6,850 nt of DNA from a virus (IMGVR_UViG_2526164629_000022), one strand, 5' to 3'; positions 1 to 6,850 are shown, counted from the stretch's first letter. Made by a program: numbers and translations. Notes: generated by a model from the sequence alone, not told the origin.

Positions 1-1074
1 TCATTTGTCGATTTCAATTTTGTCCCATTCCCGTCCACGGCTGTCTCTATACCGCGCCGCCATTGAATCTGATTTATGCCCGAGAAGACGTTGAGCAAAT
101 TTATCGCCAATCTGGTTCCGGTATAGCCTCGCTGACAGGCTACGCAGTTCATGGAATGTTGGCGGGTTTCCATCAAATGAGAGTCCAGATGCATTTCTCG
201 CCTTTGTAAAATACTTTGATACTGTTTTCGGGGAAAGAGGATCGTAATGCTTTGATGCGATTATAGTTTCACTGCTGCTGGCCTCCCTGCATTTCTGTAG
301 TGTATCAGCCAATGAGATATTGAGCGCGTCAATCGTTAGCGTTAGCGGAATGGCGAGTTTAGCCCCTGTTTTACTCTGTTCAATGTGAAGATGGTTGTCG
401 TTTATGTCTGACCATTTCATTCTGCACAAATCGCCGACTCTCTGCCCTGTAACGACGGCCAAATCCATCGCCAGCCTTAGCCAGATAGGGAGAGGTTCGG
501 CTGCATGGTAAATCTCGACATACTCATTAGCTGTCAGCCTTGAGCGCCTTACTTCTGACTTTGCTGTACGGGTTGCTGTTACCGGATTCGTTGCCACATG
601 CCCCTCGGCTATTGCTTCACGAAAAACGTCAACAAGGGTTGACCTGATTAATTTTGCGGAAGCTGCTTTACCTTCTGCTACGTAGGTGTTTAGCATTGCT
701 GCCACTTCTTTCGTTGATATGTCAGTGAGCGGTTTGTCCGGCAATTTTCTTCGGATTGCCCTGATTTTGCTGGCGTAGTCGAGTAGAGTTTTCGGCCTGA
801 TCCCCCTTTCGGTGAGGATTGTTTCATATCGGTCAAGCCACACATGAAGAGTGATTGCGTCACCGCCTTTAATTCTGTCTATTAGTGATTTGCGTCCGCT
901 GTCTGAGAGTAACTCAATATTGGCCTGTATTGCTTCAGTGATTGCTATCCTCCTGTCTCGGCCTAAACCAAACTCTTTACCCGTCCTTGGGTCCCTGTAG
1001 CAGTAATATCCATTGTTTCTTATATAAAGGTTAGGGGGTAAATCCCGGCGCTCATGACTTCGCCTTCTTCCCAT
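1..1074 (-). CDS. int: Tyrosine-type site-specific integrase, lambda Int family (357 aa, complete; stop codon at 1-3)
   Basis: Translation MGRRRSHERRDLPPNLYIRNNGYYCYRDPRTGKEFGLGRDRRIAITEAIQANIEL... ending ...HELRSLSARLYRNQIGDKFAQRLLGHKSDSMAARYRDSRGREWDKIEID is collinear with lambda Int as I recall it, including the C-terminal catalytic region. At 357 aa it is one residue longer than lambda Int, so it may be closer to an HK022-type integrase. The start overlaps the 3' end of xis, as in lambda. Confidence 0.96.
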   Translation of the reverse strand: MGRRRSHERRDLPPNLYIRNNGYYCYRDPRTGKEFGLGRDRRIAITEAIQANIELLSDSGRKSLIDRIKGGDAITLHVWLDRYETILTERGIRPKTLLDYASKIRAIRRKLPDKPLTDISTKEVAAMLNTYVAEGKAASAKLIRSTLVDVFREAIAEGHVATNPVTATRTAKSEVRRSRLTANEYVEIYHAAEPLPIWLRLAMDLAVVTGQRVGDLCRMKWSDINDNHLHIEQSKTGAKLAIPLTLTIDALNISLADTLQKCREASSSETIIASKHYDPLSPKTVSKYFTKARNASGLSFDGNPPTFHELRSLSARLYRNQIGDKFAQRLLGHKSDSMAARYRDSRGREWDKIEIDK

Positions 1075-1270
1075 TTCTGATCCTCTTCAAAAGGCTACCT
1101 GTTACTGGTCGATTTAAGTCAACCTTTACCGCTGATTCGTGGAACAGATACTCTCTTCCATCCTTAACCGGAGGAGGGAATATCCTGCATTCGCGCACCC
1201 ATCGACGAACTGTTTCAAGGCTTCTTGGGCGTCGCTGGCGAGCGTTCCACTCCTGAAGTGTCAAGTACAT
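1052..1270 (-). CDS. xis: Excisionase Xis (72 aa)
   Basis: From the internal ATG at 1268-1270 the product is MYLTLQEWNARQRRPRSLETVRRWVRECRIFPPPVKDGREYLFHESAVKVDLNRPVTGSLLKRIRNGKKAKS, matching lambda Xis in sequence and length. GGAG lies 9 nt upstream of this ATG. The longer 102-aa track ORF (to 1360) is an upstream extension, and the 3' end overlaps the int start by 23 nt. Confidence 0.93.
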   Translation of the reverse strand: MYLTLQEWNARQRRPRSLETVRRWVRECRIFPPPVKDGREYLFHESAVKVDLNRPVTGSLLKRIRNGKKAKS

Positions 1271-1282
1271 CGCAAAGTCTCC

Positions 1283-1296
1283 GCAATTACACGCAA
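1283..1296 (-). promoter_or_regulatory. cII-type activator site TTGCGTGTAATTGC (TTGC-N6-TTGC) just upstream of the xis start; probable pI-like int promoter region
   Basis: The minus strand reads TTGC GTGTAA TTGC, a perfect tetranucleotide direct repeat with 6-nt spacing. Lambda cII binds TTGC-N6-TTGC flanking the -35 region of pRE, pI and paQ, and pI lies at the xis 5' end. The -10 element and transcript start were not located. Confidence 0.5.
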
Positions 1297-1318
1297 GAAA
1301 AAGCCGCATTGATGCGGC
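1295..1318 (-). terminator. Rho-independent terminator (minus strand) between the 114-aa ORF and xis
   Basis: Minus strand reads GCCGCA-tcaa-TGCGGC followed by TTTTTCTT: a perfect 6-bp GC-rich stem with a 4-nt loop and a U-tract. Confidence 0.6.
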
Positions 1319-1353
1319 GATGGTAGGTCTGGATATCATTGAGCAATGAACAG

Positions 1354-1372
1354 GCCTCACCGAGTGTGAGGC
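1354..1372. other. Perfect 7-bp inverted repeat GCCTCAC-cgagt-GTGAGGC immediately 3' of the 114-aa ORF stop
   Basis: Palindromic stem-loop seen directly in the sequence. There is no U-tract after it on the minus strand, so it is more likely an RNA stability or processing hairpin, or a protein-binding palindrome, than a terminator. Confidence 0.4.
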
Positions 1373-1387
1373 GGTGTTATTTCATGG

Positions 1388-1732
1388 TTAGTCCTTGCGT
1401 AGCTCGCTGATTCTTCTGTAAGTCTCTGGTGCTTTGTTTCCGTGTATCTTCATTTCAGACTTCAACAGAGCAACGAGGGAATCCCATTCGTTGAGGATTC
1501 CTTTGAATGCCGGAACGCGCTTTGCAACCTTGTTGAATGAATCTCTGATTTCTGGAATCTGCTCAACAAGTGCAACGCATCGTCTGAAATCGGCTGCGTC
1601 ATGGGGAGCGCCGAAGTGATGACCATAGATATTCTTTTTCAGTCCACATGCGATTGAGGCAAGAGTTGCGCTACTGATGCCAACATCGCCAGTCGATTGC
1701 CATTTCAAAACCTTCATAGCCAAATCTGACAT
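1388..1732 (-). CDS. Hypothetical protein, 114 aa, no family recognised
   Basis: Single clean ORF (MSDLAMKVLKWQSTGDVGISS...RRISELRKD) with GGAG 9 nt upstream of the ATG. It has no counterpart that I recognise in lambda, where ea8.5 occupies this position. Confidence 0.7.
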   Translation of the reverse strand: MSDLAMKVLKWQSTGDVGISSATLASIACGLKKNIYGHHFGAPHDAADFRRCVALVEQIPEIRDSFNKVAKRVPAFKGILNEWDSLVALLKSEMKIHGNKAPETYRRISELRKD

Positions 1733-1746
1733 TTCTTGTCTCCAAT

Positions 1747-1768
1747 AAAAAAACCGCCATCAGGCGGC
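1747..1768 (-). terminator. Rho-independent terminator (minus strand) directly abutting the RBS of the 114-aa ORF
   Basis: Minus strand reads CCGCC-tgat-GGCGG followed by TTTTTTTT, then attGGAGacaagaaATG. This is a 5-bp GC stem plus an 8-nt U-tract. Confidence 0.65.
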
Positions 1769-1814
1769 TTGGTGTTCTTTCAGTTCTTCAATTCGAATAT
1801 TGGTTACATTGTTT

Positions 1815-2012
1815 TCATATATGAATAAATAAATTAGCTTTTTTCGTTGCCTTCGCGTTCTTTATTAATTTTGACAAAATCGTTTTTACCACGCTCTCCA
1901 AATGCGTCTTTAGAGTCGTTGTATCCGCAATCGCAGCACACATAATCATCAGACCATCCACGCATTGTTTTTCTTTTGCAATATTTCCAGAACCGCATTT
2001 TGGACAAGACAT
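1815..2012 (-). CDS. Small Cys-rich protein, putative zinc-ribbon, 66 aa as read; reading frame uncertain
   Basis: ATG at 2010-2012 is preceded by GGAGG with a 7-nt spacer. The product MSCPKCGSGNIAKEKQCVDG... starts with a CxxC pair. The track ORF start at 2045 is a TTG and is rejected. The -1 frame carries a second Cys pair (see findings). The 3' part lies in a markedly AT-rich stretch. Confidence 0.5.
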   Translation of the reverse strand: MSCPKCGSGNIAKEKQCVDGLMIMCAAIADTTTLKTHLESVVKTILSKLIKNAKATKKANLFIHI

Positions 2013-2108
2013 ATCACTACCTCCAAAGCATGAGAGAGATGACAACGTAACATTGATTGGAGATTAACAATAGATTGCTGATGTAAAAGATATGTATAAG
2101 CTTAGCTA

Positions 2109-2960
2109 TCAAAGAGGAGGTTCTGGTAGTTGCATCCAGTCGGTTACATTGCGACTCTGTGTTTCGAAAAATTCATCACCATTGCGGACAATATCGAAAA
2201 ACTCTCCGTCTCGATATTGCGCATAAAGAACGAATGCGCCATCACATAAAATAATTACGTGCTGACCATCATCTGGCATTAGCTCACTACAGCTTATCCA
2301 ACCATCCGGAGTTACCGGATAGTTGCCCGATAGTGCATTCTGCTCCAGTGATGCTTTTACAAACCACGCTGCCTGAACTATAACGCCATGAATCCAGCGC
2401 AAATCAGCATCGCGATCTTTCTTTTTCATCTTTTCGCCACTTAAGGCCTTGCTTATGTGGCTGCGTACCAGGTCTTCATGTAATTCCTTCGCCTCCTCAA
2501 TGGTGAAACCACCAGGCAGAAGAGCCGGAGTTACCGGAGAGCTGGTTGACGCTTCCGGGATTTTCCGAAAATTATTGGTTGACGAATCTTTATTTTCCCG
2601 AAAGTTTCCGGACTGAAGCATGGCTTCGCGGCAATCGTTCCAGCCTGTAGCGTATGCAGTCGCTTTGCTGCTGCCTTCAACTGGCGCATCCTGCCAATAC
2701 ATTTCTTCCGGCACTATCGGCGCTGGAGGGGCGGCAAATAGATATCCGCCAAAGTCAGGAAGCTCTCTAATGGCCTGTACGAATTTTTGTTTGCCTACGT
2801 CAACCCCTAATGGGTAATGAGCTATAATCTTTGCCACCGGCTCTGCTTCCAGCGATGCCAGCGCAATCCGTGCCAGTTCCATTTGTTCGCCACGAGTAAG
2901 CCCGTTTTCAAGCGGATTTTTAATGAACAATTCAATACGTTCTTTGGTAATAGTGGTCAT
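2109..2960 (-). CDS. DUF551-type prophage protein (Ea22-like C-terminal module), 283 aa
   Basis: The C-terminal segment DGWISCSELMPDDGQHVIILCDGAFVLYAQYRDGEFFDIVRNGDEFFETQSRNVTDWMQLPEPP has the pattern I associate with DUF551 domains of lambdoid Ea22-like proteins. AGGA lies 8 nt upstream of the ATG, and the middle region is low-complexity and Pro/Ser-rich. Family assignment is from memory, not a search. Confidence 0.7.
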   Translation of the reverse strand: MTTITKERIELFIKNPLENGLTRGEQMELARIALASLEAEPVAKIIAHYPLGVDVGKQKFVQAIRELPDFGGYLFAAPPAPIVPEEMYWQDAPVEGSSKATAYATGWNDCREAMLQSGNFRENKDSSTNNFRKIPEASTSSPVTPALLPGGFTIEEAKELHEDLVRSHISKALSGEKMKKKDRDADLRWIHGVIVQAAWFVKASLEQNALSGNYPVTPDGWISCSELMPDDGQHVIILCDGAFVLYAQYRDGEFFDIVRNGDEFFETQSRNVTDWMQLPEPPL

Positions 2961-2970
2961 TTGTTAGTCC

Positions 2971-3726
2971 TTAAAGTGCTAGTTGCAATTGCATTTCAAA
3001 GCGGTCGCGTTGTTCACAATACGCAAGAGAACCAGGGCTATTGTGTGCCTCAATCCGTTCTACCATTAATGCTGCGCGTGTCTCTTTACTTGCAGGTGCA
3101 TAAGCCCCAGACCAGGCTTTATCAATACCGATGTTTCGAGCGACGTTCGTACTATCTGCGCTGGCTAAGGGTAATTTTGTGAATATCAGCGGATTTAACA
3201 TGCGCAATCCATGTAGTTTCGTAACCGGCTGACCATGCCCATCAACAATGTGACGAATCAGGTCTTTCATTCTGGCTACCGCAAGAGTTGGGCGCTTTAC
3301 GTCATAGTCGCCACAACTACCGATAGCCACTCGCGGAAACTCATTGCACAAATGAATAAATCGCTCGTCACTTTCATTCATGTGCCACACTGGAACGCCA
3401 GCTAGTTTTCCGTGAGGCCACTCATTCAGAAGCGCATCATTTTCCTCCTCTCCGCCATCAATAACATCCGGGATAATGGCAAAATCGAATCCTGGGTGAT
3501 TCTTCCAGCGAGCAACAAACTCGTAGTAATCGCTCCAGTCGATTTTGTTTTTGCCAGCTGCTTTCCAGGCGGTGAATGCACCGTTGTCCAGCGCGAACGA
3601 CTGACAGTATTCAGCCGCGAGATTGATCTGGCCTGAATGCGCAAAACTGATAAACGCATGTCGCCCTTTCCATGCTCTCATTGCGCACGTATCAGGAGTA
3701 ATAGGCCCACCGTGGTAGTGAATCAT
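2971..3726 (-). CDS. TGT-fold protein, candidate DpdA-like 7-deazaguanine DNA transglycosylase (252 aa from the ATG at 3726)
   Basis: Starting at MIHYHGGPITPDT (GGAG 6-7 nt upstream), the protein shows, in the same order as bacterial tRNA-guanine transglycosylase: ALDNGAF (compare LTDSGGF), DFAIIPD (compare DIVMIFD), VAIGSCG (compare YAVGGLAVG), KLHGL (compare YLMGVG) and ADSTNVARNIG (compare FDCVMPTRNARNG). It lacks the C-terminal CxCxxC...H zinc subdomain, as reported for DpdA. This is motif-level recognition by eye. The track ORF's earlier start at 3768 would overlap the upstream gene. Confidence 0.5.
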   Translation of the reverse strand: MIHYHGGPITPDTCAMRAWKGRHAFISFAHSGQINLAAEYCQSFALDNGAFTAWKAAGKNKIDWSDYYEFVARWKNHPGFDFAIIPDVIDGGEEENDALLNEWPHGKLAGVPVWHMNESDERFIHLCNEFPRVAIGSCGDYDVKRPTLAVARMKDLIRHIVDGHGQPVTKLHGLRMLNPLIFTKLPLASADSTNVARNIGIDKAWSGAYAPASKETRAALMVERIEAHNSPGSLAYCEQRDRFEMQLQLAL

Positions 3727-3727
3727 C

Positions 3728-4056
3728 TCACTCTCCTTTGATGCGAATGCCAGTAGCGCGGATTGCATCGATGACTTCAGAAACTTTGTATGCCATTACC
3801 GTTTGGTAATCATCGTGAAAATCTGTTCGATGAAGCATGCTGCTACGTTCCGGGAGCAGTATTTCCCGCGCTTCCAGTTCTGCAATGCGCTTTTTTGCTG
3901 CTTCCAGTTCATCCAGTAATTCCAGCACGGTAGCCGGATTAGCCTTGGCAACAAAATCCCGGACTGGCTTACAATCAATCTCCGCAATGGGTTGATACGA
4001 TGTGTAGCCATGCTGTCTTGTATAACTACCGTGACGAATAACGAAAAAATCACCAT
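3728..4056 (-). pseudogene. Ea22-like N-terminal coiled-coil protein, interrupted by a -1 frameshift at an A6/T6 run (plus 4044-4049); about 109 aa if repaired
   Basis: The ATG at 4054-4056 opens a frame that turns to nonsense after MVIF. The adjacent frame reads as continuous protein-like sequence, FFVIRHGSYTRQHGYTSYQPIAEIDCKPVRDFVAKANPATVLELLDELEAAKKRIAELEAREILLPERSS...IRIKGE, with no start codon of its own before the GTG at 3928. One extra T in the minus-strand T6 run joins the two frames. Confidence 0.5.
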
Positions 4057-4134
4057 TTATTTTTTAGCCTGCCACTTATCTTCACCGGCTTTCTCTGCCG
4101 CTTCACGCAGTGCCTGAGAGTTAATTTCGCTCAC
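4057..4134 (-). CDS. Possible 25-aa small ORF (MSEINSQALREAAEKAGEDKWQAKK), GTG start
   Basis: The GTG start overlaps the TraR-like stop as GTGA, with AGAGAGG 6 nt upstream. Its TAA stop is immediately followed by the ATG of the Ea22-like gene (TAAATG). The short length makes this speculative. Confidence 0.25.
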   Translation of the reverse strand: MSEINSQALREAAEKAGEDKWQAKK

Positions 4135-4352
4135 TTCGAACCTCTCTGTTTACTGATAAGCTCCAGATCCTCCTGGCAACTTGCACAAGTCCGACAACCC
4201 TGAACGACCAGGCGTCTTCGTTCATCTATGGGATCGCCACACTCACAACAATGAGTGGCGGATATAGTCTGGTAGTTCAGACGACGCATTTTTATTGCTG
4301 TATTGCGCTGTAATTCTTCAATTTCTGATGCTGAATCAATGATGTCCGCCAT
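4131..4352 (-). CDS. TraR/DksA-family C4 zinc-finger protein (73 aa)
   Basis: Carries the motif CCECGDPIDERRRLVVQGCRTCASC, that is CxxC-x17-CxxC with a conserved G/P and Arg cluster. This matches F-plasmid TraR and phage TraR-like proteins, which act as RNA polymerase secondary-channel binders. The length also matches TraR. Confidence 0.8.
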   Translation of the reverse strand: MADIIDSASEIEELQRNTAIKMRRLNYQTISATHCCECGDPIDERRRLVVQGCRTCASCQEDLELISKQRGSK

Positions 4353-4401
4353 CTTTCATTAATCCCTGAATTGTTGGTTAATACGCTTGAGGGTAAATGC
4401 G

Positions 4402-4428
4402 AATAATAAAAAAGGAGCCTGTAGCTCC
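4402..4428 (-). terminator. Rho-independent terminator (minus strand) between the 71-93 aa ORF and the TraR-like gene
   Basis: Minus strand reads GGAGC-tacag-GCTCC followed by TTTTTTATTATT: a 5-bp stem plus a U-rich tract, starting 22 nt after the upstream stop codon. Confidence 0.55.
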
Positions 4429-4450
4429 CTGATGATTTTGCTTTTCATGT

Positions 4451-4732
4451 TCACCGTTCCTTAAAAACGCCGTTTAACATGCCGATTGCCAGGCTTAAAT
4501 GAGTCGGTGTGAATCCCATCAGCGTTACCGTTTCGCGGTGCTTCTTCAGTACGCTACGGCAAATGTCATCGACGTTTTTATCCGGAAACTGCTGTCTGGC
4601 TTTTTTGATTTCAGAATTAGCCTGACGGGCAATGCTGCGAAGGGCGTTTTCCTGCTGAGGTGTCACTGAACAAGCCCCATGTCGGCAAGCATAAGCACAC
4701 AGAATATGAAGCCCGCTGCCAGAAAAATGCAT
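4451..4732 (-). CDS. Hypothetical small protein in the position of lambda orf61; start ambiguous (ATG 4732 gives 93 aa, GTG 4666 gives 71 aa)
   Basis: The C-terminal 71 aa (VTPQQENALRSIARQANSEIKKARQQFPDKNVDDICRSVLKKHRETVTLMGFTPTHLSLAIGMLNGVFKER) read as protein-like. The N-terminal 22 aa from the ATG (MHFSGSGLHILCAYACRHGACS) overlap an alternative small hydrophobic ORF in another frame. Confidence 0.6.
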   Translation of the reverse strand: MHFSGSGLHILCAYACRHGACSVTPQQENALRSIARQANSEIKKARQQFPDKNVDDICRSVLKKHRETVTLMGFTPTHLSLAIGMLNGVFKER

Positions 4733-4746
4733 TCAGTGGTTGTCAT
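4663..4746 (-). CDS. Possible 27-aa hydrophobic peptide (MTTTECIFLAAGFIFCVLMLADMGLVQ)
   Basis: Its ATG overlaps the orf63-like stop as ATGA, and its TGA overlaps the GTG at 4666 as GTGA. The composition resembles a single-pass membrane peptide. It conflicts with the N-terminal extension of the 93-aa ORF. Confidence 0.3.
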   Translation of the reverse strand: MTTTECIFLAAGFIFCVLMLADMGLVQ

Positions 4747-4934
4747 ACCTGGTCTCTTTCATCTGCTTCTGCTTTCGCCACCATCATTTCCAGCTTTTGT
4801 GAAAGGGATGTGGCTAACGTATGAAATTCTTCGTCTGTTTCTACTGGTATTGGCACAAACCTGACTCCAATTTGAGCAAGGCTATGTGCCATCTCAATAC
4901 TCGTTCTTAACTCAACAGGAGATGCTTTGTGCAT
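4743..4934 (-). CDS. Lambda orf63-like small protein (63 aa)
   Basis: [63 protein letters not shown], with GGGAGG 4 nt upstream of the ATG. Its size, position and 28-nt overlap with the next gene match the lambda orf63/orf60a arrangement as I recall it. Confidence 0.7.
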   Translation of the reverse strand: MHKASPVELRTSIEMAHSLAQIGVRFVPIPVETDEEFHTLATSLSQKLEMMVAKAEADERDQV

Positions 4935-5089
4935 ACCGCCTCCCGTTTATTATTTATCTTCTCAGCCAGCCGCTGTGCTTTCAGTGGATTTCTGATAACA
5001 GAAAGGCCGGGAAATACCCAGCCTCGCTTTGTAACGGAGTAGACGAAAGTGATCGCGCCTACCCGGATATTATCGTGAGGATGCGTCAT
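4907..5089 (-). CDS. Lambda orf60a-like small protein (60 aa)
   Basis: The ATG at 5087-5089 overlaps the exo stop as ATGA, and the product is [60 protein letters not shown]. The track start at 5095 adds two residues (MA) and is less likely. Confidence 0.65.
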
Positions 5090-5766
5090 CGCCATTGCTC
5101 CCCAAATACAAAACCAATTTCAGCCAGTGCCTCGTCCATTTTTTCGATGAACTCCGGCACCATCTCGTCAAAACTCGCCATGTACTTTTCATTCCGCTCA
5201 ATCACGACATAATGCAGTCCTTCACGCTTCATACGCGGGTCATAGTTGGCAAAGTACCAGGCATCTTTTCGTGTCACCCACATGCTGTACTGCACCTGGG
5301 CCATGTAAGCCGATTTTATGGCCTCGAAACCACCGAGCCGGAATTTCATGAAATCCCGGGAGGTAAACGGGCATTTCAGTTCAAGGCCGTTGCCGTCACT
5401 GCATAAACCATCCGGAGAGCAGGCGGTGCGCATACTTTCGTCGCGATAGATGATCGGGGATTCAGTAACATTCACGCCGGAAGTAAACTCAAACAGGGCT
5501 CTGGCGTCGTTTTCGTACTGTTTTCCCCAGGCCAGCGCTTTAGCGTTAACTTCCGGAGCCACACCGGTGCAAACCTCAGCAAGCAGGGTGTGGAAGTAGG
5601 ACATTTTCATGTCAGGCCACTTTTTTCCGGAGCGGGGTTTTGCTATTACATTATGAACTTCTGACGCTGTGATGACACCGAGCCGTAATTTGTGCCACGC
5701 ATCATCCCCCTGTTCGACAGCTCTCACGTCGATCCCGGTACGCTGCAGGATAATGTCCGGTGTCAT
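5086..5766 (-). CDS. exo: Lambda exonuclease (Red-alpha), 226 aa
   Basis: [76 protein letters not shown]...GFVFGEQWR is near-identical to lambda Exo as recalled. The start overlaps the bet stop as ATGA. Confidence 0.97.
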
Positions 5767-6548
5767 GCTGCCACCTTCTGCTCTGCGGCTTTCTGTTTCA
5801 GGAATCCAAGAGCTTTCACTGCTTCGGCCTGTGTCAGTTCTGACGATGCGCGAATGTCGCGGCGAAATATCTGGGAACAGAGCGGCAATAAGTCGTCATC
5901 CCATGTTTTATCCAGGGCGATCAGCAGAGTGTTAATCTCCTGCATGGTTTCATCGTTTACCGGAGTGATGTCGCGTTCCGGCTGGCGTTCTGCAGTGTAT
6001 GCGGTATTTTCGACAATGCGCTCGGCTTCATCCTTGTCATAGATACCAGCAAATCCGAAGGCCAGGCGGGCACACTGAATCATGGCTTTATGCCGTAACA
6101 TCCGTTTGGGATGCGACTGCCACGGCCCCGTGATTTCTCTGCCTTCGCGGGTTTTGAATGGTTCGCGGCGGCATTCATCCATCCATTCGGTAACGCAGAT
6201 CGGATGATTACGGTCCTTGCGGTAAATCCGGCATGTACAGGATTCATTGTCCTGCTCAAAGTCCATGCCATCAAACTGCTGGTTTTCATTGATGATGCGG
6301 GACCAGCCATCAACGCCCACCACCGGAACAATGCCGTTCTGCTTATCAGGGAAGGCGTAAATTTCTTTCGTCCACGGATTAAGGCCGTACTGGTTGGCGA
6401 CGATCAACAATGCGATGAACTGCGCATCGCTGGCATCACCTTTAAATGCCGTCTGGCGAAGAGTGGTGATCAGTTCCTGTGGGTCGACAGAATCCATGCC
6501 GACACGTTCAGCCAGCTTCCCTGCCAGCGTTGCGAGTGCTGTACTCAT
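5763..6548 (-). CDS. bet: Single-strand annealing protein Beta (Red-beta), 261 aa
   Basis: [100 protein letters not shown]...KAAEQKVAA matches lambda Bet. Confidence 0.97.
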
Positions 6549-6553
6549 CCGTT

Positions 6554-6850
6554 TTATACCTCTGAATCAATATCAACCTGGTGGTGAGCAATTGTTTCAA
6601 CCATGTACCGGATGTGTTCTGCCATGCGCTCCTGAAACTCAACATCGTCATCAAACGCACGGGTAATGGCTTTTTTGCTGGCCCCGTGGCGTTGCAAATG
6701 ATCGATGCATAGCGATTCAAACAGGTGCTGGGGCAGGCCTTTTTCCATGTCGTCTGCCAGTTCTGCCTCTTTCTCTTCACGGGCTATCTGCTGGTAGTGA
6801 CGCGCCCAGCTCTGAGCCTCAAGACGATCCTGAATGTAATAAGCGTTCAT
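6554..6850 (-). CDS. gam: Gam, host RecBCD inhibitor; 98-aa GamS form complete, any longer GamL N-terminus lies beyond the window edge
   Basis: [98 protein letters not shown] matches lambda Gam. The window ends exactly at the internal Met codon, so the upstream extension cannot be assessed. Confidence 0.9.

Follow-up and report, generated by a model that had tools for sequence, protein, structure and literature searches.

The 6,850-nucleotide (nt) stretch of viral DNA IMGVR_UViG_2526164629_000022, which we call the window and always mean at its full length, carries all of its genes on the minus strand by open reading frame (ORF) calling and runs from int and xis of a lambda-like phage to the Red genes. 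Gene families were assigned with Pfam and PHROGs. As judged from gene order and homology, the window is the early-left arm of a lambdoid Escherichia coli prophage beside torS, and its central block forms the variable half of the accessory genes between exo and xis. This block includes a gene encoding a protein similar to tRNA-guanine transglycosylases (TGT), which belongs to the 'singleton DpdA' family and is a candidate DNA 7-deazaguanine transglycosylase. According to the alignments described below, this gene sits in a slot between an ea22-type (ead) gene and an eaA-type gene and is not inserted into a gene.

Positions 1–5960 of the window are 100% identical to contig AIGY01000028.1 of assembly GCA_000250175.2, where the prophage is located beside torS. 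Comparison with lambda by blastn yielded 97.3% identity for 4093–6850 (lambda 30354–33112), comprising the ea22 5′ end, orf73/TraR, orf61, orf63, orf60a, exo, bet and gam, and just 75.6% for the int-xis part at 1–1318. The lambda-like flanks described in an earlier note on this DNA were thereby confirmed, though at lower identity on the int-xis side. Relative to lambda, the variable block extends from 1319 to 4092 and contains only two islets of lambda sequence, 1748–1807 and 3725–3753, each with 100% identity. The earlier note had delimited a variable cassette at 1388–4056; the block is real, but its limits are wider and the Ea22-like gene runs on to position 4134. All genes that had been listed for it were found, all of them on the minus strand (Table 1).

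In position and strand, the arrangement resembles what the Wegrzyn and Donaldson groups have studied as the exo-xis region in lambda and in Stx phages (PMC7093339, PMC10834534): the genes lie between xis and exo, are transcribed from pL and include the conserved orf60a-orf63-orf61-orf73(TraR)-ea22 5′ block. The ea22 gene is mosaic in the way known from these phages, with a conserved N-terminus, a coiled coil and a variable C-terminal region that closes with K/R-G-E (PMC7093339, PMC10834534). Unlike in lambda, the place of ea8.5 and orf55 is taken by dpdA, an EaA-type DUF551 gene, a Lar-like gene and an ORF of 114 amino acids (aa); the Ea22 variant is short (135 aa), int-xis is divergent, and the prophage lies beside torS. 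The G+C content (GC), profiled as the earlier note had proposed, deviates only at 1733–2108 (0.36 vs 0.48 for the whole window), the sole AT-rich and compositionally odd stretch, in which the small Cys-rich ORF is located as described. With a GC of 0.484 and a GC at third codon positions (GC3) of 0.448, the TGT-like gene does not differ from its neighbors, and a foreign origin on grounds of composition was rejected.

Table 1. Genes and junctions along the window, in nucleotides counted from its first position.
Feature	Position	Strand	Remarks
int	1–1074	−	Pfam/PHROGs
xis	1052–1270	−	Pfam/PHROGs
114-aa ORF	1388–1732	−	phrog_1229; first gene of the variable block on the xis side
60-nt island, mosaic junction	1748–1807		100% identity to lambda (about 29106–29165, just upstream of xis)
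Cys-rich small gene ('Eag protein')	1834–2012	−	intact form 59 aa; frame interrupted here
EaA-type DUF551 protein, 283 aa	2109–2960	−	PF04448
Junction, 10-nt spacer after dpdA and first EaA-type codons (MTTITKE)	2938–2970		
TGT-like gene, singleton DpdA family, 251 aa (RefSeq start)	2971–3726	−	phrog_887
Junction, conserved 3′ end of ea22-type genes	3725–3753		100% identity to lambda; the downstream gene has its ribosome-binding site and start here
Ea22-like gene, 135 aa when intact	3728–4134	−	PF13935; frameshifted in the window
Junction, conserved ea22 5′ end (MSEINSQALREAAE)	4093–4134		lambda-type homology starts again here
TraR/orf73	4131–4352	−	TraR zinc finger found by Pfam
orf61-like, 93-aa ORF	4451–4732	−	shorter, 71-aa protein in PGAP (Prokaryotic Genome Annotation Pipeline)
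orf63 (DUF1382)	4743–4934	−	
orf60a (DUF1317)	4907–5095	−	
exo, bet, gam	5086–6850	−	

The TGT-like protein and its relatives

The TGT-like protein matches phrog_887, annotated as 'queuine tRNA-ribosyltransferase', with an E-value of 2e-103 and has no match in Pfam, NCBIfam or PADLOC; PADLOC did not match any other cassette protein, either. Its family is very large, with 7,855 of the 8,000 scored 90%-identity clusters at E ≤ 0.001, originating from many bacterial phyla. In tblastn searches, identity was 92.8% to homologs in the phages BTP1 and SPN3UB, 67.6% to SfI and 36–40% to HK106, SEN1, SE131, 7-11 and PEAT2, all of which are listed as DpdA-only phages (Hutinet 2019, Supplementary Data 1, PMC6884629). 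Pantoea phage MED16 followed with 38% (vs 36% for 7-11), and the DpdA of Iggyvirus Knedl, the gene of which lies inside a QueE-QueC-QueD-FolE-DpdA cluster, was still detected at 25% identity (E 5e-6). When the family profile was compared with Knedl DpdA using hhalign, a probability of 96.9% (E 1.3e-10) was obtained, with LDNGAF/LDSGAF and SADST/SCDSS aligned to each other. The aspartates D47 (FALDNGAF) and D191 (SADSTN) are invariant in 92 homologs and are the predicted catalytic residues; we take them to correspond to Asp102 and Asp280 in the TGT of Zymomonas mobilis. AlphaFold modelling from the single sequence was unusable, with a predicted local distance difference test (pLDDT) score of 37. 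It was redone with the 92-sequence alignment and then predicted a TIM barrel (pLDDT 81.4); a Foldseek search of this model against PDB was non-specific.

The singleton DpdA proteins of 7-11 and MED16 (PMC6884629, PMC8306585) are homologous to the window protein at 36–38% identity (E 1e-24 to 1e-34). As in these phages, no other 7-deazaguanine gene accompanies dpdA in the element, and the preQ0 pathway is encoded by the host. Unlike them, the candidate clade formed by BTP1, SPN3UB and the E. coli prophages has its dpdA in the early-left operon of a temperate phage. The distance is larger to DpdA1 of the Queuovirinae and Iggyvirus (CAjan, 9g, iggy) and to bacterial DpdA (PDB 7UI4), with about 25% identity and a length of 251 aa compared to 312 or 413 aa; in contrast to these, the window protein has neither the zinc cluster nor adjacent FolE/QueD/QueE/QueC genes nor a DpdB partner.

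Several observations weigh against the assignment to a DNA-modifying transglycosylase. The zinc-binding cluster of canonical TGT and bacterial DpdA (CxCxxC...H) is absent from the protein, which ends at residue 251; of its five cysteines (C14, C41, C127, C138 and C236), which are not arranged in this way, only C14 and C127 are conserved. There was no sequence-level match to E. coli Tgt, and searches of PDB, both with the single sequence and with a profile, gave no meaningful chain match. Finally, a literature search did not find a functional test of the DpdA of BTP1, SfI or HK106, of which the first is 92.8% identical to the window protein.

We surveyed the neighborhood of dpdA in loci L008–L087, representing homologs in 80 other species, by Pfam scans of the immediate neighbors. 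These included seven Vut_1/YhhQ-type transporters, two QueD, one radical SAM protein, about nine DNA methyltransferases and two Lar proteins, and only one Ead_Ea22 and one DUF551 protein. Narrow home-built hidden Markov models for Ead, DUF551 and DUF550 likewise detected almost no such neighbors in the 80 loci, and the Pfam rescan agreed. Vut_1/YhhQ is reportedly a family of preQ0 transporters. The dpdA homolog of Caulobacter phage DMCA adjoins QueD. A link to 7-deazaguanine supply is absent from the window, which holds a singleton, and found among family members elsewhere (YhhQ-type transporters, QueD, the Knedl cluster). Such surroundings speak for a part in modifying DNA with deazaguanine and against Ea22 or EaA being an obligatory partner. 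In most of the 80 loci, a same-strand upstream ORF of very variable identity ends at or overlaps the dpdA start codon. The survey suggests that dpdA is translationally coupled to whatever gene is located upstream.

Because dpdA belongs to the pL operon, it would be silent in the lysogen and its product would be made early after induction or infection. Since the element has no preQ0 genes of its own, DpdA would draw on the FolE-QueD-QueE-QueC pathway of the host and would replace guanines of the phage DNA with preQ0 or a 7-deazaguanine derived from it. Such modification would probably be low-level and would give partial protection from restriction. The content of dADG (2′-deoxy-7-amido-7-deazaguanosine) is ~0.02% of G in Salmonella phage 7-11 and ~0.13% of G in MED16, and no dADG occurs in Mycobacteriophage Orion, the host of which does not possess the preQ0 pathway (PMC6884629, PMC8306585). 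These measured relatives support the deazaguanine mechanism only modestly.

Instead of acting as a DNA insertase, the protein might transfer deazaguanine onto protein in the manner of Cap10, be directed at tRNA, or possess some other TIM-barrel activity. We regard this as unlikely, as the homology at the level of sequence and profile is to phage DpdA and not to Cap10, the neighborhoods with YhhQ and QueD are contexts of phage DNA modification and anti-restriction, and no CD-NTase or QueC-like partner gene was found in the window by ORF calling and Pfam.

Annotation of the family is uneven. PGAP lists the product as 'hypothetical protein' in all rows sampled among the 204 complete E. coli genomes that match dpdA, and several phage RefSeq records name it 'queuine tRNA-ribosyltransferase'. 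Two further records look mislabelled or derived from a contaminant. OR850331.1 ('Staphylococcus phage SA 1298 Kay', 1,719 bp) encodes a 92.8%-identical enterobacterial DpdA and a DUF551 piece, and MW057783.1 ('Campylobacter phage CJLB-4') equals lambda in its match statistics to the window and nearly equals it in genome length.

Interrupted frames and the genes on the xis side

Two genes of the cassette appear as pseudogenes in the window. The frame of the Ea22-like gene, which encodes 135 aa in close relatives, is broken by a missing T at 4059/4060 (T7 to T6 on the plus strand). The remaining 66-aa piece alone scores 19.9 bits on PF13935 (Ead_Ea22), compared to 64.1 bits (cut-off 27) for the repaired protein of 135 aa, which also matches the 133-aa phrog_1667 over its full length. 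The C-terminus, ...TGIRIKGE, is that of lambda Ea22, and the gene shows 100% identity to lambda ea22 over its last 29 nt; a K/R-G-E tripeptide is the common end of Ea22 proteins (PMC7093339). Because of the full-length phrog_1667 match and this canonical KGE end, the gene is a complete short Ea22 variant and not an N-terminal fragment. Thus, the earlier note was right about a broken frame, but what it called a disrupted N-terminal gene is a whole gene with a single T missing.

The second case is the Eag gene, in which an alignment to strain 13E0767 (locus L001) located a change from T6 to T5 at 1967/1968 that splits the frame; both resulting frames match phrog_2945. The intact translation (MSCPKCG...CCDCG...), named 'Eag protein' by PGAP, constitutes a CPxC...CxxC zinc ribbon. 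With 23.0 bits on PF14354 (Lar_restr_allev), the intact 59-aa protein stays below the cut-off of 28.6. Like Lar, the restriction alleviation protein of the Rac prophage, Eag is a small CxxC...CxxC zinc ribbon encoded in a lambdoid early region; the score does not establish membership in that family, and Eag is frameshifted in the window. Together, the sub-threshold Lar match and the true Lar genes adjoining dpdA in two of the 80 loci from other species hint that the cassette may have an anti-restriction theme.

A third single-nucleotide deletion (A8 to A7 on the plus strand, at 1746/1747) is non-coding and falls into the T-run of a terminator-like hairpin. Hence, all three deletions affect homopolymers, and the two longest runs of the shared sequence, A8 and T7, are both hit, in addition to one T6 run. 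Over 3,283 nt, an independent assembly, GCA_012533075.1 (L096), differs from the window at these three homopolymers only; its Ea22 (135 aa) and Eag genes are intact, the latter being called at 59 aa and matching Lar weakly. Compared with 13E0767, the three deletions are the sole differences over ~6.3 kb outside a recombinant tract. We found no T6 form of the Ea22 run in the 278 complete E. coli genomes carrying this allele. Considering the intact independent assembly, the absence of the T6 form from these genomes and the length of the affected runs, the frameshifts in the Ea22-like and Eag genes most likely arose through erroneous homopolymer calls in the draft assembly. The pattern of three deletions is typical of homopolymer under-calling in draft assemblies.

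The opposite view is that the deposited assembly, which does hold the three deletions, is correct and that they are private mutations of this isolate, which would then have inactivated its pro-lysogenic Ea22 gene and its Lar-like gene or would phase-vary them by slippage. Homopolymers are genuine hot spots of slippage, and two of the three changes fall into coding sequence. We nevertheless give real mutations only a small chance: all three changes are deletions, one of them in a non-coding T-run, they are concentrated on the longest runs, and they come without any substitution over the 3.3 kb and ~6.3 kb compared, with the Ea22 change itself absent from the 278 genomes. Programmed or phase-variable frameshifts were judged unlikely on the basis of the intact independent assembly and the missing T6 form.

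Next to xis, the 114-aa ORF matches phrog_1229, a family of unknown function, over its full length (E 1e-51) and has no match in Pfam, NCBIfam, PADLOC or PDB; in relatives it is annotated as the hypothetical protein WP_001281197.1. ORFs of phrog_1229 are conserved and widespread across lambdoid prophages. Between this ORF and the Eag gene, the terminator-like GC hairpin (1751–1770, minus strand) is followed by the T-run and lies inside the 60-nt lambda island. In blastn comparisons, the homology to locus L002 stops at 1807, and lambda matches solely 1748–1807 in this part. The island may be a conserved terminator of the pL operon that doubles as a recombination junction.

A slot with exchangeable cargo

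Alignment of the window to lambda and its relatives, a check that the earlier note had suggested, located the breakpoints at gene ends or domain joints, namely at 1807, 2249–2343, 2847–2879, 2938–2960, 3725–3760 and 4088–4093. At the 3′ end of ea22, AU5Stx1 matches 3724–3753, and the matches of IAI39 and 2014C-3061 extend up to 3760/3766; the piece 3725–3753 alone matches many E. coli genomes without dpdA. Homology to lambda, AU5Stx1 and 2014C-3061 resumes at 4088–4093. On the other side of dpdA, the first 50 positions of a query consisting of 2925–3770 match hundreds of dpdA-less genomes. The nucleotide homology to BTP1 covers exactly 2940–3727, i.e., dpdA and both junctions, and that to IAI39 covers 2938–3766.

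The query spanning dpdA and both junctions found a match in 1,190 of 5,426 complete E. coli genomes, compared to 204 for dpdA only, which indicates a slot with exchangeable cargo. In phages lacking dpdA, the ead and DUF551 genes are still separate and enclose other cargo, a 77-aa ORF in P13374 and a 171-aa ORF in AU5Stx1; an ST131 prophage without dpdA likewise has other small ORFs between the two genes. The breakpoints, the two genome counts and the alternative cargo agree in that the variable content between ea22 and xis is exchanged at short conserved sequences, and this part proved to be, as described, a recombination hot spot whose variable accessory genes are flanked by conserved modules. 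The region would, accordingly, consist of complete, independently exchangeable genes joined by short conserved junctions at which lambdoid and P22-like phages recombine, and other phages would carry different cargo between the same junctions.

Where dpdA is present, its surroundings are regular. The order ead - dpdA - eaA was found in 13E0767, 2013C-4538, APEC O78, 2014C-3061, IAI39, L096 and Salmonella phage BTP1; it is collinear in all dpdA-bearing E. coli and Salmonella loci with annotation that we examined and also in nine of the ten full-length matches listed for the junction-spanning query. In IAI39 (L088, NC_011750.1 2781765–2783812), the nin region contains a partial ead, dpdA and a DUF551 gene, with replication protein P/DUF1064 on one side and NinX/terminase on the other; therefore, the three genes moved together at least once. 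In BTP1, a P22-like Salmonella phage, the ea region reads eaE - ead - 'queuine tRNA-ribosyltransferase' - eaA - ... - xis - int. It shares with the window the order ead, dpdA, eaA, a DpdA with 92.8% protein and 82% DNA identity, the overlapping stop and start codons upstream of dpdA and, downstream, the 10-nt spacer followed by MTTITKE. BTP1 differs in its ead allele (214 aa), in an eaA that includes DUF550 (PF04447) and in Erf/Abc instead of Red, and its nucleotide homology to the window ends at the dpdA junctions.

The DUF551 gene downstream of dpdA is itself a mosaic. Its product matches PF04448 at residues 220–282 with 63.9 bits (cut-off 22), and the joint before this domain, QNALSGNxPVTPDGW, is conserved with 933W, IAI39 and P13374. 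The N-terminal module (MTTITKE...ASLEAEPVA) is common to BTP1 EaA and to the DUF550-DUF551 protein of 13E0767. Three parts can be distinguished, a conserved EaA N-terminal module (2847–2960), a middle of the P13374/AU5Stx1 type (2320–2846) and a DUF551 end as in 13E0767 (2109–2319). In blastn, 13E0767 matches 1–2319 and 2847–6850, including the two outer parts of the gene at 99.9–100%, and P13374 and AU5Stx1 match 2249–2879 at 97.9%. The corresponding middle in the closest relative, 13E0767 (L001:3935–4398), encodes a dATP/dGTP pyrophosphohydrolase (PF04447, DUF550; 141.5 bits), as in EaA of the P22 type; the window protein has no PF04447 match. The exact chimera was found in no complete E. 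coli genome of the collection and in only two draft assemblies at NCBI, GCA_012533075.1 being one that has it. By these alignments, the peculiarity of the window itself is a recombinant eaA-type gene, in which the pyrophosphohydrolase middle is swapped for an unrelated, P13374-type middle.

The regular linkage of ead, dpdA and eaA, including the copy in the nin region of IAI39, could reflect functional coupling and not mere co-location, which counts against independent exchange. The three genes might form a functional unit, in which, e.g., a DUF550/DUF551 protein or the coiled-coil protein Ea22 assists or targets DpdA. Collinearity in every locus sampled from E. coli and Salmonella, the joint move in IAI39 and the tight packing, with overlapping stop and start codons on one side and the 10-nt spacer on the other, are in favor of such a unit. 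However, the alleles and domain content of ead and eaA vary beside a nearly invariant dpdA, only one Ead_Ea22 and one DUF551 neighbor occurred across the 80 other species, dpdA adjoins DUF1317 in SfI and KO-TP1, and the genomes matched by the junction-spanning query were about six times as numerous as those matched by dpdA only. A three-gene unit is improbable on this evidence.

Fusion of the two flanking domains does occur. In 933W, NP_049538.1 contains PF13935 at residues 2–155 and PF04448 at residues 231–296, an arrangement that corresponds to the class Ea22_V2 (PMC10834534). The earlier note considered such a fusion typical of Ea22-like proteins; it exists, but lambda Ea22, BTP1 Ead, AU5Stx1 gp13 and P13374 ORF14/15 contain Ead_Ea22 without DUF551, and DUF551 is likewise missing from most others. 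The 933W protein shares both Pfam domains and the DUF551 joint with the window, where they belong to two complete genes, the DUF551 gene having an EaA-type and not an Ea22-type N-terminus. Although the joint (QNALSGNxPVTPDGWISCSE, 2271–2343) is 90% identical to 933W at the DNA level, the proposal that the TGT-like gene was inserted into, or recombined within, a single ancestral Ea22-type gene with both domains is very improbable and was abandoned, because the upstream gene has a canonical Ea22 C-terminus encoded by the same last 29 nt as in lambda, the downstream gene possesses the full EaA-type N-terminal module and a 175-aa middle, the latter absent from 933W Ea22, the two genes are separate in dpdA-less phages as well, the trio recurs collinearly without a sign of insertion, with homology to BTP1 confined to dpdA and its two junctions, and the 933W fusion would be explained more simply as a product of recombination at this conserved joint (window 2271–2343). 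Of the two findings that the earlier note had named as speaking against its proposal, the first, a collinear gene order free of insertion marks, was obtained, and the second, absence of fused proteins elsewhere, is contradicted by 933W.

In summary, we consider it probable that the window represents an exchangeable cassette with assembly-error frameshifts and a DpdA that would act by the deazaguanine mechanism. A mosaic exo-xis region and a singleton DpdA in lambdoid and P22-like phages (HK106, SfI, BTP1, SPN3UB) are already on record; the cassette is ordinary, recombination-shuffled, and its type of gene has been catalogued before. The apparent pseudogenes are a warning that homopolymer errors of draft assemblies can mimic gene disruption. 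Moreover, there is an annotation gap, as a candidate DNA-modification gene of Stx-type prophages is left unnamed in ~204 complete genomes of E. coli, including many Shiga toxin-producing strains. It is even conceivable, if a long shot, that the stand-alone DpdA constitutes, together with the Ea22-type and EaA-type proteins, a host-preQ0-dependent DNA-marking module of temperate lambdoid and P22-like phages that is switched on at induction. If true, this module would alter how the DNA of Stx phages and prophages is handled by restriction or by glycosylase-type defenses that sense deazaguanines.

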